Shown here in pieces: positions 6,640 through 32,000 of a DNA stretch of 32,000 bases. This DNA is from Candidatus Saccharimonadota bacterium. Lineage in GTDB: Bacteria; Patescibacteriota; Gracilibacteria; BD1-5; UBA2023. Made by a program: the position numbers and the translations under genes. Within the stretch, counting starts at the first letter, position 1. Each line of letters starts with the position of its first letter. The stretch is from assembly GCA_042852035.1 (NCBI GenBank), contig BAAFHK010000001.1, positions 30,001 through 62,000 of the forward strand, written 5' to 3'. The notes beneath the pieces are model-generated. The model saw only the letters and a program-made list of their open reading frames with translations, made no database searches and had not been told where the DNA came from.

Positions 6640-7992
6640 ATGAAAAAATATATTTTTCTCCTCTGACTTTTTGCCTTTCCGGTATTTGCTTCAGCTTCTG
6701 ACATAGTCGTATGTACTATGGAATATGCTCCAGTATGTGGTCAACCCCCTATGCCATTATGTCCAACAGGGATGGCATGTATTCAATCATTTCCAGCTCC
6801 GAAGACATATTCCAATACTTGTATGATGAAAGCAGATAATGCGGCGCTCATTCATACTGGAGAATGTGAATCAGTAAACACTCCAAAAGCTTGTACCAAA
6901 GAATATATGCCAGTATGTGGCATGAAGCAGGTGCAGTGTTTTACTACACCATGTAATCCTATCCGAACTGATTATGGAAATCGGTGCATGGCTGAGGCAG
7001 ATGGGGCGACAGATATTACATATGGAACCTGTCAGATGAGCGAAGGAAATCCTCCAGTTGTATGAGGCGATAAAGACAAATATGGATGTATCCCATCAGC
7101 AGGATACACTTGGGATGAATCACTGAAGTCATGTATCCGTCCTTGGGAATACCAAGACAAGGTTGATTGGGCATATAATAAAAAAATCACGAAATATACT
7201 TCGATAAATGAGTTTAAGTATGGAAATATACTTACTCGACAAGAAGCAGCAGCTTTTATTACGCGATATCTCATCGAAGGTCTTGGTCGATCAGAAGCTC
7301 TCTGTAAACTTTCTTATAAAGATTTAAGCAGTATAGATACAAGTCTTACGCCTTCTATAAGTCGTGCTTGTGGACTTGGAGTTATGCTTTGAGATAGATG
7401 ATACTTTCATCCTCGACGTGGACTCACTCGTGCCGAAGCACTCGCTGTGCTTATACGCGCAATTGATCAAAAAAGACGGGATGAATCGCTTTTTCCATGG
7501 TATCAGAACTATATAACACGAGCAAATGAACTCGGTCTTTCTCTCCCAAATAAGCCAGAAAATTTCAATCAATTTATCACTCGAGGTGAGTTTATTGAAT
7601 GGCTCAAGACTCTTTCTGAAAACCAGACTTGAACTAACGATACGACACTTTTAGGTGATTGGAAGCTCGAGGGATATACAGATGCAAAAGGAAAAGAGTA
7701 TAGCGTAAGCCCGACAACGCTTACATTTACGGCGAATCGTTTTAGTGCGAAGTTTTGTAATAGTATAAGTGGAGAATATAGTGCAAAGGATGGAATGATT
7801 ACCGCTAAATCAGTTATGAGCACTATGATGGCATGTGCCGATGATACTCTGACGATGCTTGAGGGAGCCTTTGATCTCGACTGAGCAACATATTCTGTTA
7901 TGATAGCAAGTGTCATGCCGTGATACACTGGACCAACAATGTGGGTGAATATTCGAACATCCGCCGGTGCAACATACAGATTTGGCCGATAG
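6640..7992 (+). CDS. secreted multidomain protein: 2x Kazal-type inhibitor domain + SLH-like repeats + META/HslJ domain (450 aa)
   Basis: Signal peptide MKKYIFLLGLFAFPVFASA. Two Kazal signatures: YAPVCG...TYSNTCMMKADNAALIHTGEC and YMPVCG...DYGNRCMAEADGATDITYGTC. SLH-like LTRQEAAAFITRYL, G-D-R-G-YFHPRRGLTRAEALAVLIRAI and ITRGEFIEWL. META-like WKLEGY...LTFTANRFSAKFCNSISGEY...STMMAC. The frame was verified to TAG 7990..7992, joining track ORFs 6718..7065 and 7447..7632. Confidence 0.7.
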
Positions 7993-8051
7993 AGAAAGTT
8001 TGGAAATGCGGAGAATTTCCCTATAATTTATCTATCTTTTTTCTCCAAAAT

Positions 8052-8336
8052 ATGCCACAAATGTCACGAGATGATTTTACTGATAAAGTCCAAGAATATA
8101 TCAAAAGGATTAATCAGATTGCTGAAGAGCAGGGATACTCTGTAATGATGGCATATTATATTGCCTGAGATGAAACATCCCCCGATGACTTTATTATTGA
8201 TTGGAGAAATATGAGCCTCAATGATAACCTCTATGCTCTTTCACGATGGAACCAAGATATTATGAATAACTTTGATGAAGGAGCTCTTGAGGATGGGAAA
8301 GAAAGATGGGGAAGAGGTGATTTTACCAATCAATAA
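8052..8336 (+). CDS. small hypothetical protein (94 aa)
   Basis: ATG 8052 (MPQMSRDDF), one in-frame TGA at 8166..8168, TAA 8334..8336. The upstream part of track ORF 7920..8168 overlaps the preceding gene and starts on GTG. Confidence 0.45.
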
Positions 8337-8343
8337 CTCGGTA

Positions 8344-8371
8344 TTGACAAAAAATAACTATTTTATATAGT
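8344..8371 (+). promoter_or_regulatory. candidate sigma70-type promoter of the giant-ORF pair (possibly leaderless)
   Basis: TTGACA 8344..8349, 16-nt spacer, TATAGT 8366..8371. ATG 8379 lies 7 nt after the -10 box. Confidence 0.35.
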
Positions 8372-8378
8372 TATTTTT

Positions 8379-11300
8379 ATGTCTAGAAATGATATAAGTC
8401 AAGCAGAACTTGAAGATCTTGAACTAATCTGTCGATCACTCGAAGAAGAATGAGTGCTTGATGGACTTGTTCAGGGTGTTGATTGAGTTCGCAGAGAGGC
8501 ATTCAAAAGGATTGAACTTACCCTTTCAAAGTCTCAAGAATCAAATCCTCGAGTAAAAGAAAATTTTCCATTTCTTCTCTATCGTCTTTGAGATGTACTT
8601 TGAGCTGTTCATTTTGTCCTTTCAGAAATCGAAACTTACTGAATCCGAGACGTCCCGCGAATTGTGGATACATTTAAACTCGCCGTAGAATGATATGAGC
8701 AGCTTCAATGAGTCGAGCCATCTGAATCAGAACTTGTTACCGAAAGGGATAATGCGCAACTTCGGGAGCTTTCTCTCGGACTCAATCGGATTCTCTCATT
8801 TTTGCCCTCTGATCTTCCAGATTCGTTTCGACTCCGCTCTCTCTATGCTTCAAAAATAGAGAAAAATGAAAAATCAGCGAGTGATATATATGAGGATTTT
8901 TTCCGGAGTAAAGAACAAAAAACAGTCGAAGATTATAAAGAGAGTGCGAAACTTCTGGAGCTCCAATGAAGACTTGAAGAATCCTTCAATCGACTTCGTG
9001 ACGGATGTGACATGAGCAAGGATTACTCTCTTTTTGAGCAGTATATCCGTATGGCTCTCATATTTCTCCCCGAAGAAGTTGCGAGAGAGATTTTTGATTT
9101 TTCCCGACCACCGAAGTATCCCTACCCATTCAGTTTTCATAGAGGATGAATTACTTCATTTACAGAACTTCGCGAATTGAGATCGGTTGTATGATATTTC
9201 GAGAAGCATCTTACTGATAATACATGATATGCGATATATTTTGAAGCATCTAATGCATTTTGTAATCATTTAATCGAAGGTGCATCACAATATGCAGTAA
9301 AGAAGGATTTTTCATGAGAGATGAAACTGGATGATGATCTTAAGAAATACTTTCGAGTTTTACTTGAGGCGCTCGAAACGCAGTTATTTTATTTGCGTGA
9401 TTTTACCCATCTCAATCATTATCTTGCGATTATTGATACTCTAAAAGATACTCCAGAGGGTCAGACATTTCTTTTTGAATATTTTACTGATACATCGCTT
9501 TCACCTTCGCCAAAAGAACAAGTTGAGCTTACGAAGGATAGAATTGAGCGCTGTGGGACTTCGCTTTCAACTTTTGATGAGGATGTTGGATGACTCTATA
9601 CGCCCATAACTGGATCAAATGCTCTTGAGAATGGATTTATGTCGGAACTTTCTTATCGGTATGTCTTGCTTGCAAAGTATATTTATGGAACCAATGGAAC
9701 GAATGAGGTGAATTCATGAGGAGGTGAGACATCATGAACTCTTTCCAAAGAATCCTATACACTTGAGGGAATGCGGGATTCACTTGATGGGATGAGTCAT
9801 TCACTCGTGAAATATGGGAGTGAAATTGAGGATTTTCGGCTTCGTCAGTGAGCCCGTGAACAATTTCTCTCCCGAACATGAATTGAGGTTGCGACAGAAT
9901 TCCAGGAGTTTAGAGAGGCATTGATTTTAAAATATGGAATAACTCTGATTCATGTCATTAAAACTGAAGCAATGGATGAAGATTACACTTGATCTTCAGC
10001 TCCGCATATATGTCTTGCTCATCCAGAGCTCAGTCTTTATTTCTATACGGAGAGAATTCTTGCTGGATATGAAGAAAATTTTAGTGAATCTATCGCAGAA
10101 ATATATGGAGATCATAAGTGGATGTATCTCCCTCATCGTCATATTCTGTTTTTTGCGGAGATGTTGCTTGCAAATAGTCGACCGAGTGAGGCAATCTTAA
10201 TTCTTTCTCGTTATCCTGATTCTGCCGTAAATCTCGATGCCTTGAATTGTATGATTCGATCAATTGCCCGTATTCGTGCGAGTAAAAATACTGAATTACT
10301 TGATACAACACTGGCAGAACTTGATAATTTTGCTTCGAAGATGAGCGGACATGAAACCTTCGAATCTCTCCTCCTCACCCTCACTCAGAGTTATAGTGAG
10401 GATCTTGATGCTGCAGAGACGAGCCAAGAGAGTTCAGAAGACGAGAAAGAACAGATTAAAACCGATCTTGCTCTTTCATCATATCTGTTTGGGGCAACTC
10501 TTCGATATTCTGCCCCTTCTGAAGCCCTTCACTATCTAGAAGTTGCAAGATGATATGGGAGTATCGAGGCGCTTGTAGAAATCGCAGAAATAGATCTCGA
10601 GAAAGGGACGGGTGATCCTGAGAATATTATCGATGGATTTGAGGGGCAGATGGATGGTATAACATGAGAAACATATTTGCGAGTTCTTCGTGCTATTATA
10701 CGAGCAGGTGCAAAAATTATAGAGAGTGATGAAGATTCTCAGATAAAAGAAAAAGCAAAAAATGCCATACATCATGCCATTCAAGCTGCTCGAAATGAAT
10801 CTGATCCAAATATTCTATGATGTGCAGTGGAGGCATTTCTTGGGAATCCCGTTACTCGGAGGTATTTTTATTCATACTTTGCAAGCGTAAGTGATGATGA
10901 TATACTTGCTCTTGATAAGAAAGAGTTAGAGTCTATAAGAGATGCCTGTCAGAAAGATCTTTCGATACAAGATCTTCCAATTGCCCTGAAAATGGCAATT
11001 ATCTATGCCAAAGTTCGACTCTCAACCATCAGCGAATCTTCCTTTACTCTCTCTACTTGGTGAGAATTCCTTCGAGCCCTAGAAGATGGACTTCCAGAGC
11101 TCGATAGTCCAAAATGACAGATAAGTGTTACTGCCTTTGCAGAAATAATTTATCAAAATATTTCCATGGAAAGCGTTTCTGAAAATGCTGTTCTTTCACT
11201 TCATGCATTTGCCTGTGATATTCATAGAGATGCTGTTGTAACGATAAAAGATGAATGTGTAGCAGATAAAAAGATAAAAAATAAAGAAAGGTATAAAGAG

Positions 11301-23415: not shown

Positions 23416-26400
23416 ATGCAAGGCAATACTCATATGCGAAATGGTGATATCGTGGATGTATATGGAAGAGTTATTACGAGAGAAGAGGCTTTTGATATAA
23501 TGCGAATGGCTCACGGGCTGCCGGCTGCAAGCATGAGAGCTGATATTCTCCATGCTTTGGAACATCACCCGATAACTATAGTACAAGGAGAAACTGGAAG
23601 TTGAAAAACAACACAAATACCAAAATTTTTAGTGGAAAGATATCCAAATAAGCAAATTGTCGTAACTCAACCAAGAGTGCTTTCTGCCATAGCAAATTCG
23701 AATCGTGTAGCGCTAGAGCTCCTTGCTGAGACTGGAAATCCAAGATTTTCAATATGACAAAAAGTTTGATTCCGTACATGACCACAAAAAAGCCACCCCT
23801 CTACAGCCCCACTTTCTTTTCATACCGATGGACTGGAGCTGAGGAGACAGTTGGTAGCATCCATCATACCTGATATTCTTGTTCTTGATGAGGCACATGG
23901 ATTTCCTGTCGCAGGAGAAATGATTTCGTGGAATATGCGAGAGAAACTCAGGAAAGATCCTAAACTTCGAATGATTATCACCTCAGCAACTCTTGATCCA
24001 GCAGTATTTCGAGAGTACTATAAGGGTATAGATCGTGATATTCCTCTCATTCAAATTCCTGGGAGGACATTTCCAGTTGATCGGAAACTGGACGCAGAAA
24101 GCTCTCTGATAGATGAGGTTGTTATGGCTTATAGAAATTGAGAAAACATACTCGTTTTTGAAGCGTGAAAAAAAGAAATCGAGCTTGAAATCGAAAAACT
24201 CCGAACAATTCTCTGACCTGATGCCCAGATATTTCCTTTGCACGCAGAAATGCCAAAAGAAGAGCAAGAAAAACTTTTAAAAAAGGATCCCAACGACCGA
24301 AGGCCTCGAATTATTGTAGCAACGAACGTTGCCGAAGAGAGTATTACTATTGATTACATTGATCGAGTTGTAGATAGTGCTCGATATAAAGTTTCGCGTT
24401 ATAATGAGGCCTGAATCCCAGGACTGTATCTCGAAGATATTCCCATGTCGAGCGTTAAGCAACGTTCCTGAAGAGTATGAAGAACCCATCCATGAATATA
24501 TTCTCGTCATAGTGATACACCGTTCAATGAATTGCCAGAATACGGGGATGCCCCGATAGAAAAAGAAATGCTTGATCAGCACATTCTTATGCTCCTTGCG
24601 GAAGGTTATGACATGCGAACAATTATAGATGAAGCTAAGAGTCGTGGAGAAAGTCCATTTTATCATAGATTTGATGTGTGACTTCTTCGTATTTCTTATG
24701 AGAGACTCAAACAAATTGGTGCAATTACCAAAAATGGAGCCCTCACAGAATTAGGATACACACTTTTACGTTACCCTCTTGATGTTTATTACGGACGCAT
24801 GCTCCATGAATCCATTGATCGATCTTGTGTTGATGAGATGATGATTATTGTATCGATACTTGAAAAGAAAGGATTCCTTTCTAAAGAAGACACATGGAAG
24901 AATCTTGGTATTGTAAAACCGGGTACGTCAGACCTTGCTGGATATACGGCATTATTTCGTTTCTTTACAGCCACAGAAATTACCCCTAAACAAGCAGAAA
25001 AACTGAAAGAATTCTGAGCAAATCCGGATGAAGTTGACGATTTTATGACACGAAGGCACTCGAAGAATAATCCAAGACTTTTTGAGATAGTTGATCTTAC
25101 TCCAATTGGCGTAAAAAAAGCAAGGATTAAAGCAGTATATGATAAGTACCTTGAGCTCCAAAAACGATTTGAGATGCTTGAAATACCTATAACAACAGGA
25201 AAAGATAAAAATGCTATTGCGATTTCTATAGCTACATGAAGTCCATTCTTTCTCTATTCTTATAATGATGAAGAAGGATGATTTATCTCACAAAAACAAT
25301 CAGGAAGCAAAGATGCGGATATATTTCGAATGGGGGATATTTCACTCGTGGAGCCTGAAGACGGTGCGCGTTACATAGGGCAACCATTTATTATTTGACC
25401 GAAAGATGAATCGAGCTCGTGAATGAGGCTCCTATCATTTATTACTCAGGTAGATGATGCTATTATAAAGGAAGCACAGGCTACCAATGCTCGTTATGCA
25501 AAAGCAGAATATTCTCATGAAGAATGAAATGTCCATCATGCTGGTATTTTAGAGTGGACATGAAATCAAGGAGGAGGATCTGGAGGTGTCACTCAGGCGT
25601 GAGCGAGATCTTTACAATGACAATCAACCGCAGCAAAGGGAAGTCCTCATCGAGCTGAGAAACTCGCGCATTATCCTGATATAGCATTAGGAGAAGAAAC
25701 TTATGCAAACTCTCTTGAGCAACTTTATGATGCTCCATTTACCTCTGATGAAGCATCTCGGGATTATTATCTTCGATACTGTCTTCCACTTTTTCTTATA
25801 GAACACAATCAGGCAATTCGAAAATATATAAAATGAAAATCACCAGAATGGGTTGCAATATTTCGAGAGTTGCTCACACGATTCGTTCTTGATGAGGCTC
25901 AACGTATTCGATTACAGAATTTAGAAGTAACAGAACGAAGTTTTCGTTATGACTCATGAATTCTCCAGAGATTTGAGGAATCAAATGACTTTCATATTCG
26001 TTACTTCAGGATTCATGGGATGCTTCCTGAGATACGAGGACCAAAAGAGGGCGCTCCAAAAGAAAGTGATTTTGACATTTTGGACTATCCAGATGAAGAT
26101 ATTGAGGGAATGAGAAAGCAATATGCAAAAAGACTCGGATGAGCAAACCGATTCAGTGTAGCTATCGATTCCGATAGTATCGAAGAGCAATATTTTACAT
26201 CGCGAGTACTCGCCATTAGTGAATGAGATGGAACTGAAGAAGAAATAGGTGCATATGCTGTTATAAAGGACATATATGATTCAGTTGGTCGATTGGATCA
26301 AGTTGAGAGAGGATCAATGAGTCGATGACTCAAGAAGATGAGTTCTCAAAAGAAGGATATTGATAAGCTCGCGAAAAAAATATGAGGACTTCAAGTAGTA

Positions 26401-27105
26401 TATGATGCACTTTCTATGGCTTCAGATTTACGATATAGGGCATCAAGTTTACGAGTACATCAAAAGGTGCTCCATGATGCATGAAAAATTTTTGAGGATT
26501 TTTGAATTTGAGGATCTTATAATCAGGCCCTCCAAAGAGCATTTTCAGATGATTCGAAAAAAAGAAAAAGAGGCGCAAATGCCCTTAAATGATACCGAAC
26601 AGCATTGGGGGGATTAATTCATTCACATTCTGAAAGAAAACGTGAATTGGAAGGGCAACTTTCATTTGCAGAATTTCCACAACTTCGAACTCTTTGAGAT
26701 ACGTTGAATCGTTTGGCTGCGAGTATGTATCAAGGTGACTACTTAAGACTGCGAATTCAACCAAAGATGCTAGAAACTTTACGGGCTCTTGTGCGAGATT
26801 ATGGAACAGAACGTCTATGAATGGATGCTCTACTAACGAATTTTATTTATCATAGACAATCAGGGAATTTCCTTGTGGACGATGGAGTAAAATTTCAAGA
26901 AATCCGAGAATATCTCGATGCATGGGAAGTTATAGAAAATCATCAGATGGATATCGCTGAAGAAGTTAAGAAATCAGACGATGCTGAATATATTCGATTG
27001 ATGCTCAAAAAACTTGAAGAGGCAATATGAAATCTAGAAGAGTCGCACAAAAAGCTCAAGCGAAATCCAATCTATAAGAAATTCCAAGAATCTGTTAAGG
27101 CCTAG
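23416..27105 (+). CDS. hrpA: HrpA-like DEAH-box ATP-dependent helicase with long C-terminal extension (1229 aa)
   Basis: GETGS-G-KTT Walker A (TGA 23602..23604), LDEAH, TSATLD, TNVAEESITI, and QRS-G-RV-G-R motif VI (TGAs 24469..24471 and 24478..24480). HA2-like region LTELGYTLLRYPLDVYYGRML. The frame was verified to TAG 27103..27105. 34 in-frame TGAs. Joins track ORFs 23416..23604, 23851..24141, 24799..25017, 25045..25239 and 26821..27030. Confidence 0.85.
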
Positions 27106-27574
27106 AAAGGAGAGATGGAATTTTCGGAGCAAATATAATTCTAATAACCATCTCTCGTCTCAGGTTTATGAACTGCTCTAGGAATTTGAGTACAAATTCT
27201 ATATCTGATTCACTGCGTTTCGTACTGAGGAGAGCTTTTGAAGTGTCACGATTATAAGCAAGAGCTCTACCGCTTTTTATATTTCTTTTTCTCTGATTTC
27301 TTCTTTCTATTCCAGAAAGAATATTTGGTAGTGCTGTTTCAAATTCTCTTCTTCCTTTTGCCAAATTTTCAAGATCGAGAAGGAGTTCTTTATGCATTTT
27401 TTCTCTCGTCTCATAAGACAAAGTTCTTTTTTTATGCTCATGAGCAAGGAATGCTGCCACGCGTCACCTTACCCTGTATCCAAGTCTCATCCATGTATTT
27501 CATACCTGTGAGGGAGAAATCTTATTACTCGCAAGGTCTTCAATCGATAATGTATCCTGAGAAGTATGTTCCAT
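27095..27574 (-). CDS. hypothetical basic protein (159 aa)
   Basis: ATG 27574 lies 2 nt after the recG stop. Joins track ORFs 27500..27706 (part) and 27095..27460. TAA 27095..27097. Its 3' end overlaps the convergent hrpA end by 11 nt. No family recognised. Confidence 0.45.
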
Positions 27575-27576
27575 AA

Positions 27577-29547
27577 TTATTTTTTTGATTTCATCCACTC
27601 TTCGATGTCCTCTCTGATTTCTGAGATGAGATTCACATCTCGGAGATCTGCAAAGTGAAAGTCTGGAACGCCAGATTGCCTTACCCCGTAAACTTCTCAT
27701 GGTCATCTGAGTTCGAGATCTATTTCTGCAAGCTCAAATCCATCATTCGTTTTTTCCATTGCCTTCAGACGATCAGTCTTGTATTCCTTTGTTGTAAAAA
27801 GATAACAATAACTCTGATGTTCACCTCGGCCGACACGCCCGCGAAATTGGTGGAGTTGTGAAAGTCAGAATCGTTCCGAAGCCTCGATACAGATAATAGT
27901 TGCGTTCGGATTATTTACTCAGACTTCTACGACAGAAGTGGAAGAGAGGATATGAATTTTGTTTTCATAAAAATCTTGCATCACCTGATCTTTTTCTTTC
28001 CCGCTCATTTTCCCATGAATGAGGCCGATACTCAGCTTAGGAAAAACGCTTGAGAGGGTTACTTGCATCTCGGTTGCGCTTGCTATATCAAGGGTTTCTG
28101 ATTCGCTCACAAGTGGAGAAATCCAATAGACCTGACGTCCTTGTCGTACTTCCTCCTCGATAAATCGATACACTTCTACACGCTGATCTTCCCGGATGAC
28201 TCGAGTATGGATTGGTTTTCTTCCTGCTGGATATTCATCAAGGACTGAAACATCCTGATCTCCATAGATGGTGAGGGCGAGAGTCCGAGGGATAGGAGTT
28301 GCTGACATATTGAGTCGATGTGGAACAATTTTTGATCGACTACAGTACTCTTCAAGAGTTTTGCGTTGTTCTACACCAAACCGGTGTTGCTCATCAACGA
28401 CCACGAATCAGAGGTTCGCAAAGCCTACCGTATCTTGTATGAGAGCATGAGTTCCAAAAATGATATCCGTTTGTCCATTTTTGAGTCGTTCTCGAGCATC
28501 TTCCTTCATTCGAGGAGTGAGTGAGCCAACGAGGAGATCAGACTGAATACCGAGTTCTATAAGCCAAGCCTCATTGCCACTGAAGTGTTGTCTTGCAAGG
28601 ATTTCAGTAGGGGCCATGATGGCTACTTGAATGGCTTTGGTCTTTATTATGTGTATGGCAGCAAGTAAAGCGACTATAGTTTTTCCCGTTCATACATCAC
28701 CCTGGAGAAGACGAGCCATAGCATGGGGTTTTTCCATATCTTTGAGAATCTGGAAGAGAACAATTTTTTGTTTATTTGTCAGAGGGAAAGGGAGTCCTTC
28801 GATAAGAGTCTTCATGAGTTCACTGTCGAGTGGAGTGTTCATTGCATGACCTTCACTTTCAGCAAGGGCTTTGTATTTTTTTTCGACGCCTATCATTTGG
28901 AATCGAAATAATTCTCCATATCAGAGTTCAAATTTTGCACGTTCAAAATCTTCGATAGAAGAAGGGTAATGGATATCATGTATCGAATCGGATTTGATTC
29001 GAAGTCTTTTTTTCTTCCTGATATCATCAGGAATATCATCTTCAATCTCTGAAACAAAAGATGAGAGAAGCTTCATCTTATCTCTGATCCAGCTACCAGG
29101 AATATAGTTTACATCAGAATATACGGGTTGTATTTCTTGTCGTTTGGGAGAAAAATGCTCGATTTCCACACTCGGAAAAGAAAGTCTTCCATATTCATAC
29201 TTTGCTTTCCCATAAATAAGTACGCTATCTCCTTTGGTAAACTTCGAAAGAATAAGGCGCTGATTAAACCACACAGCTTCGGCATGCATTCCATCGCTGT
29301 CAGTAAGCACTGCCTTGATGAGGAGTTTCTTATTTCTCGTCATCTCACTTGTAATCAGTTCTATAGTGCACTTGATTGCTTGTTTCTCAGTTATATTTAT
29401 GAGGGAAAATTTTGAGAGAACATCACTTTTATCTTCGTATTCTTTCGGAAAAAGCATCAAAAAATCCCGAGTTGTTTCGATACCAGCCTCTTTTAATTTT
29501 TTTATATATACATCGGTAGTGTGGAGGAGTGATTTTGTGAGGAGCAT
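27577..29547 (-). CDS. recG: ATP-dependent DNA helicase RecG (656 aa)
   Basis: GDV-G-TGKT Walker A (TGA = plus tca 28690..28692), [31 protein letters not shown], and [17 protein letters not shown] (TGAs 27703..27705 and 27697..27699). Four track ORFs share one frame. ATG 29547 (MLLTKSLL), TAA 27577..27579. Confidence 0.93.
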
Positions 29548-29742
29548 TTCTCGTATAGTAGAGAAAAAATAAGAAAAGGCAAAAAATGAAAAAGGCCACA
29601 CTGCATACTGCAGGGGCCAATGTAGGTTGGAAACTCCTTTCGGAGTCAAAGAGCAATCCTTTCCGGTTGCCTAAGTGGTCAGAGACCATTCCGTGATTGA
29701 TATGCCACCATGGTTATTTTGACTTCTGGTGGAGGAGAGATG

Positions 29743-30006
29743 TCAGGGCGCCTTCACGAGGTGAACATCGAGTTGCCATTGATGCTTCTTGCGCAGCCAG
29801 TCAGCGCAGCCAGGGCAGATCTTGATGCCGGTGGCTTCGAGGCAAGCGATGAAGCGTTCCTGTTCAGCGGCACCAGCAGCCACCAGAGCGTTCCAGCTCG
29901 ACTGCAACTTCTGCAGCACGATGACCCCATTGGTCGCAAGACCTTGGAGCATCTTGCTGATGCTCGAATGTATCCCGTCTTCACGGGAGCCTTTCGGTTT
30001 TCTCAT
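29743..30006 (-). CDS. small protein of unknown function (87 aa if TGA is stop; 111 aa under table 25)
   Basis: ATG 30006 is preceded by AAGGAAG (plus 30015..30021), 8 nt upstream. No internal TGA. Ends on TGA 29743..29745; the next table-25 stop is TAG 29671..29673. Cys cluster C-x9-CPGC. Confidence 0.5.
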   Translation of the reverse strand: MRKPKGSREDGIHSSISKMLQGLATNGVIVLQKLQSSWNALVAAGAAEQERFIACLEATGIKICPGCADWLRKKHQWQLDVHLVKAP

Positions 30007-30121
30007 GTCGTTGTCTTCCTTGTCTCAGATGTCTGATTTCCCACCATTCTTCAGGTGAGACCTTTTACCACAGGATCAGTGTGGTAAATAGTAAATTAGA
30101 GATTTATTTTATTTTGTCAAT

Positions 30122-30151
30122 ATAAAAAAGATTCACGATTGGGTGAATCTT
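30122..30151 (-). terminator. rho-independent terminator (minus strand) in the AT-rich spacer
   Basis: Minus strand reads aagattcac-ccaatc-gtgaatctt followed by ttttat. Confidence 0.55.
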
Positions 30152-30167
30152 AGGTTTATACAAGTGA

Positions 30168-30189
30168 AGGCCCGCGCAGTGGCGGGCCT
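30168..30189 (-). terminator. GC-rich hairpin downstream of the 105-aa ORF
   Basis: aggcccgc / gcgggcct 8-bp stem, 6-nt loop. No clear U-run. Confidence 0.4.
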
Positions 30190-30262
30190 CTTTACCATTC
30201 CCTCGTTTCTCCTTTCATTCCTTACTTTCGTAGAAACTTAGGAGAATGGTTGTTGGAGGGGT

Positions 30263-30580
30263 TCAGTGCAGCCGGAGTTTCTTCCGCTTGCTCTTGGCGG
30301 CTTCGATGAGGTCATGCGCCGACTGGAAGGGTGACTTTTCGCCGTGGCGACGCTTCACACCGTGTTCTTCCAGCAGGCGCTCTTCCTCTTGCTTGAAGGC
30401 AAGAATCGTCGGGGACAACTTCGTCCCCGAGGCGTGATTCTTGTCCAGTTCATAAGCCGTTGCCAAGAGCTTGGTCCAGCGGTCCTTCTTCTGGGCCGAA
30501 CGCTTCTGCCGGGCATGCCAGCTTTGGCGCATCCGGTCACCACGGGACCTGTCATTTTCGTGAGTTTGCAGTTGTTGCAT
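30263..30580 (-). CDS. small basic protein of unknown function (105 aa if TGA is stop; 158 aa under table 25)
   Basis: ATG 30580 is preceded by GAGGAGG (core GGAGG = plus 30585..30589). No internal TGA. Ends on TGA 30263..30265; the next table-25 stop is TAA 30104..30106. Lys/Arg-rich. Confidence 0.55.
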   Translation of the reverse strand: MQQLQTHENDRSRGDRMRQSWHARQKRSAQKKDRWTKLLATAYELDKNHASGTKLSPTILAFKQEEERLLEEHGVKRRHGEKSPFQSAHDLIEAAKSKRKKLRLH

Positions 30581-30678
30581 TTCCCCTCCTCAAGGGAATA
30601 GGTCAAATAATGAACTGGCGCCCCACGGCACCATCATCCTATTAAATGACACCTGTAGTCTATCGCTTCTCTAGTTTC

Positions 30679-30759
30679 TTGTCAAACAAATTTTCTCATT
30701 TTATATATGAAAATGATTCTCACTCTTTCATTTTACTCGGTTCTTTTTTTAGATATAAT
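30679..30759 (+). promoter_or_regulatory. candidate sodB promoter(s)
   Basis: Candidate 1: TTGTCA 30679..30684, 17 nt, TATATA 30702..30707. Candidate 2: TTTTAC 30731..30736, 17 nt, TATAAT 30754..30759. ATG at 30782. Confidence 0.3.
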
Positions 30760-30781
30760 ACGTCTATATTAAATTTTTACT

Positions 30782-31369
30782 ATGTCATTTATTCTTCCTT
30801 CTCTCCCATACGCTCTTGATGCACTCGAGCCTCATATCTCAAAAGAAACTCTTGAATATCACTATGGGAAACACCATCAGACCTACGTTGATAATCTGAA
30901 TCGTCTCCTTCCAGGAAGCGAATACGAAGGGAAAACTCTTGAGGAAATTATAAAGAATGCCCCTGCTTGAGGAATATTTAATAATGCAGCCCAAATCTGG
31001 AACCATACATTTTATTTTGAATCCCTCACGCCTGCTGGGCACCATATTCCTTCGAAATCACTCTATGATGCGATTAATCTGAGGTGGGAATCTCTTGATA
31101 ATTTCATTGCAGAATTCAACAAGGCAGCTCTCGCAAATTTTGGATCAGGCTGGACCTGGCTTGTTACAAAAAAAGATGGAACACTCGAGATTGTATCCAC
31201 GAAAAATGCAGATACTCCTCTTACTACCTCTGAGATTCCACTCCTTACTTGTGATGTCTGGGAGCATGCATACTATATTGATTACCGAAATGCTCGAGCG
31301 AAGTATGTAGAAAATTTCTGGAAGGTAGTCGATTGGCATCGAGTGAGTGATCGTTATGATAAAAGATAA
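30782..31369 (+). CDS. sodB: Fe-type superoxide dismutase (195 aa)
   Basis: [25 protein letters not shown], then TGA 30968..30970 at the Gly of [16 protein letters not shown], then [16 protein letters not shown] 31367..31369. Confidence 0.95.
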
Positions 31370-31373
31370 AAAT

Positions 31374-31401
31374 AAAAAATCCCGCACCTGCGGGATTTTT
31401 T
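31374..31401. terminator. bidirectional rho-independent terminator
   Basis: Perfect 12-bp stem aaaaaatcccgc / gcgggatttttt, loop acct, between convergent sodB and the transferase gene. Confidence 0.75.
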
Positions 31402-32000
31402 ATTTTTTCTTCACGATTGAGAGAATCTTTGTCATAAAGAGAGTGATGATTGCGATAAAAATAAAGAGAATTATTTTTCCTTTTGTATCAAGGAAAATAG
31501 CTGCGATTCAAAAGCTTGCTGCGAGAATGTATATGATATTGCGAATATTTGCATGAGTGAATCCAAGTTCAAGGAGACGAAAATGGAGGTGATGAGTCTG
31601 ATCTCATTTCATCGGATTTTTCCCTTGCATAATACGAACCCCGACTACATATATAAGATCAATAAGATAAATCCCAATCACTGACATTGCAGTAGCAATC
31701 TTCCCTCATGCTACGATCGCAAGAGTTGCAATAAAGAATGCGAGGAGTATTGTTCCAGAATCTCCCATAATCCCACTCCGATGAATATCATGATAGGTTA
31801 CAAGAGCTGTTATGGGCAAAAGAATCATCACGAAAATAAGGATGAATTGACTGTTTTCAACTGCAGCTTCTGTAGTATCTGTGAGTGAGAGTTTAAGAGC
31901 GAGAAATCAAAGAATTACGAAGCTAATAAGAGAGAATCATCATGTTAGCCCAGGGATTCCATCAGAAAAATTTATGCTATTAAATACTAGAACGTACCAA
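31400..32000 (-). CDS. glycosyltransferase family 4 polyprenyl-phosphate sugar-1-phosphate transferase (MraY/WecA family), 5' end outside the window
   Basis: The manual minus-strand translation is open to the window edge. FNSINFSDGIPGL (NxxNxxDGxDGL), MGDSGT and DQTHHLHFRL motifs, hydrophobic throughout. TAA 31400..31402. Several in-frame TGAs. Confidence 0.8.

Follow-up and report, generated by a model that had tools for sequence, protein, structure and literature searches.

How can two small genes that look as though they were written in the standard genetic code persist in a bacterium that reads UGA as glycine? The question is raised by a stretch of 32,000 nucleotides of the Gracilibacteria contig BAAFHK010000001.1 (assembly GCA_042852035.1, positions 30,001 to 62,000; the whole stretch is called the window below, and positions are counted from its first letter). 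Between recG and sodB, at 29594-30655, the window carries a GC-rich island with two minus-strand open reading frames (ORFs), ORF1 of 87 amino acids and ORF2 of 105 amino acids. Each is preceded by a Shine-Dalgarno (SD) sequence, contains no internal TGA and ends in TGA. The original prediction, made from the letters alone, placed both ORFs exactly and took the island mainly for a recent horizontal acquisition or mobile remnant from a standard-code donor, or else for an assembly chimera. We arrived at another reading, to which we give a probability of about one half: the island is native to one Gracilibacteria (Altimarinota) clade, has been passed on vertically there and holds two autonomous small-protein genes whose mRNAs fold back on themselves.

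The mean GC content of the window is 0.391, and the flanks of the island are at 0.32-0.42. In 200-nt windows the GC content reaches 0.505-0.585 over 29600-29999 and 0.545-0.58 over 30200-30599, dips to 0.395 at 30000-30199 between these two blocks, and exceeds 0.51 nowhere else in the 32 kb. The GC content at third codon positions (GC3) is 0.68 in ORF1 and 0.72 in ORF2, and 0.26-0.35 in recG, sodB and the helicase gene. When the 32 kb were scanned for an SD sequence followed by ATG...TGA and a C-rich box, these two ORFs were the only real candidates. The GC-rich blocks and both SD sites (listed below) that had been noticed at the outset are in place. The host starts had been described as free of SD sequences, which holds for 19 of the 21 long host ORFs; the other two have a weak SD 4-mer. 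The sodB gene (30782-31369) has an in-frame TGA at a conserved Gly-Gly, and its translation in code 25 is exactly the NCBI protein GAB0174170.1, from a 750,307-bp contig of a 'Candidatus Altimarinota' (Gracilibacteria) metagenome-assembled genome (MAG). As predicted, TGA is a glycine codon in the host. It makes up 200 of the 636 glycine codons (31%) in the 21 long host ORFs, and therefore UGA must be decoded efficiently. Gracilibacteria belong to those bacteria that have turned UGA into a glycine codon and for which loss of release factor 2 (RF2) has been reported; prfB is reported to be absent from all BD1-5 genomes (PMC6851277).

The two ORFs belong to two units that lie head to tail on the minus strand just upstream of recG: cassette A (the ORF2 unit, in slot A, the first slot) and cassette B (the ORF1 unit, in slot B). 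The relatives of the cassettes were all traced, via protein look-ups, on contigs of Logan, ENA, JGI and NCBI, because GTDB species genomes and JGI metagenomes gave no match when scanned with protein patterns and with a conserved 21-base motif of the untranslated regions (UTRs). The homologues of ORF2 are 73-80% identical to it (P0002, 80%; P0003, 74%; also P0006, 98 amino acids, E = 2e-25), and all of them adjoin recG. For ORF1 we found P0004 (80%) and P0005 (33%), and type-2 alleles in L002, L006 and L007 that are 32-35% identical. These few protein relatives all sit at this one site. In this way cassettes were located at the same site upstream of recG in 10 or more contigs that stem from independent samples, with protein identities of 32-80%. 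A slot between recG and sodB or a GGDEF gene, filled with relatives of ORF2 and ORF1 or with other small GC-rich ORFs, is present in L001, L002/L003, L005, L007, L008, L009-L011, L013, L017 and L018; these contigs come from different runs and projects, and the extra loci were found via the SodB cluster. The order sodB, cassette, recG is kept in contigs of other samples at 74-84% DNA identity. L005, which Logan assembled independently, matches the window with 100% identity over 23742-31943 (8.2 kb), through both junctions, and the junction sequences are themselves conserved (the promoter region upstream, the terminator and the recG leader downstream). An empty recG-sodB site had been expected to be worth seeking, but the site is occupied in every related lineage recovered, and L001 lacks cassette B only: window 29585-30163 has no counterpart there, and a short hairpin terminator is found (L001 806-854).

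The island has diverged together with its neighbours. Between the window and L002, sodB has a nonsynonymous divergence (dN) of 0.054 and a synonymous divergence (dS) of 1.93, so that synonymous sites are saturated; nucleotide identity is 83% for ORF2 and 81% for sodB. GC3 lies between 0.57 and 0.78 in every allele of every lineage, with a dS of 1.3 in ORF1. This indicates that the high GC content is maintained and is not the fading trace of a donor. The original prediction had also thought of meeting the segment at native GC with TAA or TAG stops in relatives; the segment is indeed there, but it is GC-rich and TGA-terminated. Of the marks of a genomic island we found the atypical base composition. 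Inspection of the ORFs and a repeat search of the flanks confirmed that there is no integrase or transposase ORF and no flanking repeat beyond chance AT-rich ones, a tRNA/tmRNA search found no tRNA gene, and the combination of patchy presence, little divergence from a donor and decaying composition is not seen. No homologue outside the recG site was detected among 5.8 billion clustered proteins, 1.84 billion representatives, IMG/VR, INPHARED and PLSDB, and blastn against plasmids and phages gave no match.

Each cassette would consist of a sigma-70-type promoter, a structured 5'UTR, an SD sequence, an ORF of 52-105 codons, a C-rich box, a structured 3'UTR and an intrinsic terminator. In the window the predicted features are as follows.

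30685-30680 and 30662-30657, minus strand: promoter of cassette A, TTGACA and TAGACT with a 17-nt spacer (10 of 12 consensus positions).
30602..30650, minus strand: 5'UTR hairpin of cassette A, 49 nt, GUCAUUUAAUAGGAUGAUGGUGCC GUGG GGCGCCAGUUCAUUAUUUGAC; helices 1 and 2 are 98-100% paired in four lineages.
30594-30599 and 30583-30591, minus strand: 5' strand of the cassette A fold-back, AUUCCC and the SD sequence GAGGAGGGG; invariant in four lineages.
30263..30580, minus strand: ORF2, 105 amino acids, isoelectric point (pI) 10.4, helical, TGA end; homologues P0002, P0003 and P0006.
30255-30261, 30207-30246 and 30197-30202, minus strand: 3'UTR of cassette A, with the anti-SD box CCCCUCC, a hairpin with a CGAAAG loop, and GGGAAU; helices 3, 4, 19 and 20 are 94-100% paired.
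30166-30190 and 30119-30151, minus strand: terminators of cassette A, a GC hairpin kept in all lineages and a hairpin with a T-run.
30120-30115 and 30098-30093, minus strand: promoter of cassette B, TTGACA and TAATTT; TTGACAAA is kept in L002, L005 and L007.
30068-30084, 30040-30059 and 30015-30021, minus strand: 5'UTR of cassette B, two hairpins and the SD sequence AAGGAAG, of which AAGGAA is conserved.
29743..30006, minus strand: ORF1, 87 amino acids, pI 9.5, four predicted helices, TGA end; conserved motif KIC-x2-CADWLR.
29620..29742, minus strand: 3'UTR of cassette B, with the C-rich box CUCUCCUCC (29731-29739), hairpins at 29705-29732, 29677-29687 and 29634-29645, and a GGAA/UUCC closure; it exceeds the ORF1 coding sequence in conservation.
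29581..29618, minus strand: terminator of cassette B, GGCCCCUGCAGUAUGCAGUGUGGCC and a U-run, followed by the conserved recG leader; the recG ATG is at 29547.

In cassette A, TTGACAAG and a TA-rich -10 box are kept in L001, L002, L007, L008, L009, L010 and L017. The -10 box of cassette B is weak and was not picked up by the promoter scan, and its TTGACA, read at first as a plus-strand box, turned out to be the minus-strand -35 box of ORF1's own promoter. The 5' hairpin of cassette A has two pairs altered on both sides among four lineages, and the 5' hairpins of cassette B survive changes as well (CUCACC/GGUGGG in the window, CCUCACC/GGUGAGG in L002). For the 3'UTR of cassette B, RNAalifold gave 25 pairs, two of them with compensatory changes. 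Just 5' of the cassette A -35 box, at about 30703-30722 (minus strand), lies the imperfect palindrome ATGAGAATCATTTTCAT, also found in L002, L008, L009 and L017 and thus kept despite different slot-A ORFs; it may serve as an operator or mark where the adjoining transcription unit ends.

The start of ORF2 deserves caution. An alternative in-frame ATGATG start (30637; minus strand 30627-30637) lies inside the 5' hairpin, and all four lineages keep this frame open. Upstream of ORF2 in the window it crosses an in-frame TGA within the SD sequence (30586-30588; CCT TGA GGA GGG GAA ATG), where the other lineages have CGA. Gene calls by NCBI, JGI and Logan disagree (104, 117, 158 and 176 amino acids), and the NCBI call of 176 amino acids is the read-through product. 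The locus is therefore a warning for annotation, since calls for these ORFs vary in start, stop and length. We also noticed an in-frame TGA 3-7 codons 5' of the SD-led ATG, at 30022-30027 for ORF1 of the window and likewise in L002, L007 and L008-L010 (UGAGGAG or CUGAGAC). In slot B, the second 5' hairpin has a UGAGGAG motif in its loop, too. These occurrences may be due to chance or may be a piece of a shared RNA motif.

We next consider whether the ORFs are translated at all, as the original prediction had allowed for the lack of any coding signal. Comparison of ORF1 between the window and L004 gave a dN of 0.125 and a dS of 1.29, with 39 of the 60 differences at the third codon position; with a dN/dS of about 0.1, this ORF clearly appears to be coding. 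In ORF2 (window versus L002: dN 0.149, dS 0.36) the dN/dS is 0.3-0.4 at a dS of only 0.27-0.39, five times below that of sodB. Its indels are all of whole codons (one codon, and six codons in L007), and indels of 1-2 nt begin directly after its TGA. ORF2 is, by the pattern of its changes, coding with unusually constrained synonymous sites. Purifying selection, codon-phased changes and a conserved start were thus found by sequence comparison, which contradicts the absence of a coding signal. The UTRs exceed the coding sequences in conservation in both cassettes. Absence of internal TGA was confirmed and extends to 13 cassette ORFs (0 in 1073 codons), but it is weaker evidence than it had seemed. 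A-ending codons make up 14.5% of the 1073 codons, and because they are so rare the avoidance of TGA is largely a by-product of composition. Glycine is likewise encoded by GGC (29), GGT (15), GGG (9) and seldom by GGA (4 of 57).

The proteins of ORF1 and ORF2 are hydrophilic, and the grand average of hydropathy of the cassette proteins is -0.16 to -1.41. AlphaFold2 predicted four helices for ORF1 (mean predicted local distance difference test score, pLDDT, 74) and long helices for ORF2 (pLDDT 68). Neither model had a Foldseek match in PDB with E below 4, sequence-profile searches of PDB gave no significant match, and searches of all four ORF types against Pfam, PHROGs, NCBIfam and PADLOC gave sub-threshold noise only. 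The statement that the proteins belong to no family that can be named therefore stands. Identity with the small basic proteins bS21, bL33 or RpoZ was rejected for lack of profile hits. It also turned out that ORF1 and ORF2 are not recognizable paralogues (hhalign E = 0.055 over 13 columns).

What the slots hold varies from lineage to lineage. In L008-L013, L017 and L018, slot A holds an unrelated ORF of 52 amino acids with the SD sequence GAGGAG and a terminal TGA followed by CC(U/C)CCCUC. Its dN/dS is about 0.5, and its length, ATG, SD sequence and TGA are fixed across alleles that are about 30% divergent. The 3'UTR of this ORF in L008-L010 has the layout of cassette A, with compensatory changes seen by eye (CUCAAUACCU/AGGUAUUGAG versus CUUAAUAUCU/AGAUAUUAAG). 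Loci with the 52-amino-acid ORF carry in slot B a type-3 ORF of 80-85 amino acids that ends in TAA; homology of type 3 with the TGA-ending types 1-2, which would have revealed a change between TGA and TAA inside a single family, was not supported (hhalign probability 0.6%). Between L009 and L010 the flanks have 0-2 mismatches per 30 nt, and the slot-A coding sequence of 159 nt (L009 2407-2565, minus strand) has about 48 differences, distributed 19/12/17 over the codon positions (dS 0.65, dN 0.32). The L010 allele recurs in the more distant background of L017. Therefore, recombination appears to swap the coding part within a conserved UTR scaffold, and slot A is, judged from these alleles, a recombination hot spot confined to the coding sequence. 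A diversity-generating retroelement does not fit this variation: no reverse transcriptase was found (a template repeat was not looked for), and the differences fall 19/12/17 with synonymous sites diverged.

Other genes on these contigs vary as well. Between sodB and cassette A, L002 (811-2160), L008 (3547-4905) and L009 (2803-3915) have a GGDEF-domain gene, which is not present in the window or in L001. In L008 a fatty-acid desaturase gene (7917-8753, plus strand) ends in TAA and is free of TGA over 279 codons; its GC3 is 0.62, compared with a GC3 of 0.32-0.49 and 1-12 TGAs in its neighbours, and L017 has an NMO gene at this place. By its composition the desaturase gene seems truly to have been acquired recently, from a donor that uses the standard code.

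To assess the stability of the ORF2 transcript, we compared its minimum free energy with that of dinucleotide shuffles. It was -219.7 kcal/mol versus -161.2 +/- 6.7 kcal/mol (z = -8.74), and a second set of shuffles gave z = -9.23; for the relatives and the other cassettes z was -1.65 to -4.2. RNAalifold on four lineages predicted the 5' hairpin, a closing helix between the two UTRs, and pairing of the SD sequence with the C-rich box, which starts two bases past the ORF2 TGA. In the proposed fold-back, AUUCCC of the 5'UTR would pair with GGGAAU of the 3'UTR, which closes onto it, and the SD sequence would pair with CCCCUCC; because of this last pairing the two ends of ORF2 would lie side by side with the ribosome-binding site masked. 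A UG/CA segment beside the AUG is predicted to pair with another just 5' of the UGA, so that the start and stop codons would face each other across an internal loop, with the UGA unpaired. In the consensus structure 91.6% of the cells are paired, versus 34-47% in slid-partner controls. Eight pairs are altered on both sides, and the covariation score is 0.164 versus at most 0.097, which for four sequences is suggestive support. The partition function gave a probability of SD:C-box pairing of 1.0 in the window, 0.97 in L007 and 0.5 in L002, and removal of the 3'UTR raised the computed probability of an unpaired SD sequence from 0.00-0.15 to 0.28-0.50. The SD-sequestering fold-back known from type I toxin mRNAs is thus predicted in ORF2-type cassettes of four lineages. 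A search of Rfam 15 with the whole window gave no match at gathering scores; the best scores at 29400-30800 were at most 17.5 bits, of a chance, terminator-like kind.

From these structures we infer that translation of ORF2 would be gated by the opening of the fold-back, through 3' trimming, a factor acting in trans or a ribosome at the end of the ORF. The GC-richness of the transcripts would reflect selection for stable, heavily paired RNA and would not be a foreign leftover. The coding part of slot A appears to be traded between strains by recombination in the conserved UTRs. Small, helical, fast-evolving and lineage-restricted proteins, together with allele exchange, suggest a conflict-type or regulatory role. 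We favour the view that the cassette proteins are translationally gated, fast-evolving small regulators or conflict proteins.

The TGA at the end of the ORFs is retained strictly. It ends 10 of the 13 tabulated cassette ORFs and the ORF1 homologue of L004, that is, all 11 sequences examined of three ORF families between which no relation is detectable. In all 11, conservation of the protein and of the frame ends exactly at the TGA. A further in-frame TAA or TAG follows only after 13 to more than 70 codons, in differing frames; the read-through tails of ORF2 measure 13, 13, 23 and 53 codons, and those of ORF1 measure 15, 24 and more than 70. For the window this agrees with the predicted extensions of 24 codons to TAG 29671-29673 (ORF1) and 53 codons to TAA 30104-30106 (ORF2), and the latter stop lies beyond the terminators. 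TGAC is invariant in ORF1 amid variable columns, and over all sequences the base after TGA varies (A, U or C). Read-through as glycine predicts the junction peptides LRLHGTPPTTILL for ORF2 and VKAPGHLSSTR for ORF1. A +1 frameshift at CCC-UGA was considered, but this site occurs in type-1 ORF1 alleles only and hence is not a general solution. The retention of TGA may reflect an RNA-level motif, a context-dependent end of translation or a standard-code translation setting. A deliberate compatibility of the cassettes with the standard code, such that UGA truly signals the end of the ORF in a cell that reads it as glycine or the cassettes are translated by standard-code machinery (of a partner or prey, or ribosomes with phage RF2), seems to us rather unlikely. 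In the case of standard-code machinery, the UTR scaffold would be a handling signal and the hypervariable coding part a payload. The locus thus offers a concrete case for testing whether UGA decoding in code 25 is ever context-dependent and whether some genes of host-dependent bacteria stay 'bilingual'.

The standard-code signature from which the original prediction started is real and conserved in its SD sites, GC3 and TGA ends, but the origins proposed for it found no support. An abrupt change of GC within a MAG might point to a chimera of Gracilibacteria DNA with that of a GC-rich organism. Since L005 is identical through both junctions, eight further diverged loci from other runs have the same arrangement and the junction sequences are conserved, a chimera has next to no probability. 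Hardly credible, too, is a recent acquisition or mobile remnant from a standard-code donor, even though deviant GC, SD sites, a TGA stop and the lack of in-frame TGA agree with it: the site is occupied in lineages with saturated sodB, divergence of the cassettes is on a par with that of their neighbours, GC3 has not ameliorated, and neither mobility genes such as an integrase, nor boundary repeats, nor a donor homologue were found. Self-contained units of promoter, ORF and terminator with deviant GC resemble phage morons. This would suit an ancient, moron-like capture from a code-11-compatible Gracilibacteria phage or plasmid, later domesticated, with SD, TGA and GC frozen as RNA structure; cassette B is present in some lineages and absent in others, slot contents vary by lineage, and Gracilibacteria phages without in-frame TGA and with TGA stops have been predicted (Liu et al. 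2023, PMC10746230). However, the back-up stops of those phages are in 'close proximity' and ours are 13 to more than 70 codons off, no homologue beyond the recG site turned up in the databases searched, no phage genes lie nearby, and GC3 is still high at a dS above 1. On balance, we regard such a capture as unlikely, though deserving of attention.

The remaining alternatives concern what the cassettes do. A GC-rich island in an AT-rich genome is reportedly a classic sign of structured RNA, an idea associated with Klein and colleagues (2002), and the cassettes might be purely non-coding structured RNAs in which ORFs arose by accident. The z of about -9 for the ORF2 fold, the UTRs conserved above the coding sequences and the constrained synonymous sites of ORF2 would fit this, but we find it hard to believe, given the dN/dS of 0.1 in ORF1 with its changes at position 3, the whole-codon indels within ORFs (such as the six-codon deletion in L007) with 1-2 nt indels only past the TGA, the conserved ATG and SD sequence, and the lack of an Rfam match. 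We know of no bacterial precedent for a context-dependent UGA, at which the C-rich box and closing helix that follow would bring about termination, drop-off or rescue in place of glycine insertion, so that the short proteins would be the real products. The idea agrees with conservation that stops exactly at TGA in three unrelated families, with read-through tails that vary in frame and length, with the invariant TGAC of ORF1 and with the ORF2 read-through frame of the window, which meets no stop before the terminators; context-dependent stops are also known in ciliates (PMC4967479). It is improbable, as UGA is efficiently decoded in the host at 31% of glycine codons, prfB is reported absent, and the base following TGA is not uniform. 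Highly improbable is the possibility that the odd features are functional because the cassettes are made for standard-code machinery, be it that of a partner or prey bacterium to which RNA or DNA is transferred, or host ribosomes altered by an RF2-supplying phage. This single idea would cover the SD sites, the GC3 of 0.57-0.78, the lack of in-frame TGA, the terminal TGA, the UTR conservation and the hypervariable alleles. But type-3 ORFs of slot B end in TAA, composition explains much of the avoidance of TGA, and to our knowledge there is neither a transfer machinery nor a precedent for such delivery of mRNA or genes between bacteria. In its favour, Gracilibacteria are inferred to be host-dependent (PMC11452946).

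Our reading of the island as a native locus with fold-back mRNAs also has several points against it. It gives no reason why TGA should be retained so strictly. As GC3 is high even where z is -1.65, the GC content may not be due to structure alone, and it might instead stem from biased gene conversion at a recombination hot spot. With 3-4 lineages per cassette type, covariation is suggestive and not proof, and the closing helices AUUCCC/GGGAAU and SD/CCCCUCC are nearly invariant and so not testable by covariation. In the 52-amino-acid cassettes the predicted pairing of the SD sequence with the post-stop region is weak (at most 0.27). A consensus scan revealed no antisense promoter inside the cassettes, and no transmembrane segment was found in the cassette proteins (maximum Kyte-Doolittle mean over 19 residues, 1.0), which are thus not the small hydrophobic membrane peptides of type I toxin systems; because of this, the analogy with type I toxins is limited to the design of the mRNA. 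If the reading as a native locus is right, the island shows that a GC-rich stretch of an AT-rich genome need be neither foreign DNA nor a classical non-coding RNA. It presents mRNAs with a UTR scaffold conserved above the encoded protein and a recombination hot spot that exchanges the coding part only.

Parts of this design are familiar from other systems. Like phage morons, the cassettes are self-contained units with a GC content unlike that of their surroundings and with presence/absence variation (cassette B is lacking in L001); unlike them, they have no prophage context, and the site next to recG is fixed in every lineage seen. Dual-function RNAs such as SgrS/SgrT, RNAIII/hld and SR1/SR1P combine a structured RNA with a small ORF. 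The cassettes share this combination, and with GC-rich RNA islands they share a local GC excess that would stem from RNA structure, but their ORFs fill most of the transcript and no Rfam family matches. The code-11-compatible phages of Gracilibacteria and Absconditabacteria (PMC10746230) resemble the cassettes in that genes in a code-25 host avoid in-frame TGA and may end in TGA. The cassettes differ in being chromosomal, syntenic and vertically inherited, with no phage genes or homologues; the back-up stops of the phages adjoin the TGA, and those of the cassettes are far off in non-conserved frames. As with the context-dependent stops of ciliates (Swart et al. 2016, PMC4967479), a codon read as an amino acid within genes seems to mark the end of an ORF, but the ciliate mechanism is eukaryotic and tied to the mRNA 3' end, and here sequence conservation alone suggests termination. 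In the full-length mRNAs of the type I toxins hok and aapA1, fold-back impedes translation (Arnion et al. 2017, PMC5416894). The cassettes share with hok/sok and with aapA1/IsoA1 of Helicobacter a solitary small ORF that has a promoter and a terminator of its own, a predicted SD-sequestering fold, and an RNA of unusually high predicted stability whose structure is conserved above the peptide. They differ in their hydrophilic proteins of 52-105 amino acids without a transmembrane helix, in the lack of an antisense promoter in the consensus scan and in the tandem arrangement of two cassettes. Although the proteins do not fit and the consensus scan revealed no antisense partner, the design of the cassette mRNAs appears by analogy closest to that of fold-back-inhibited type I toxin mRNAs.

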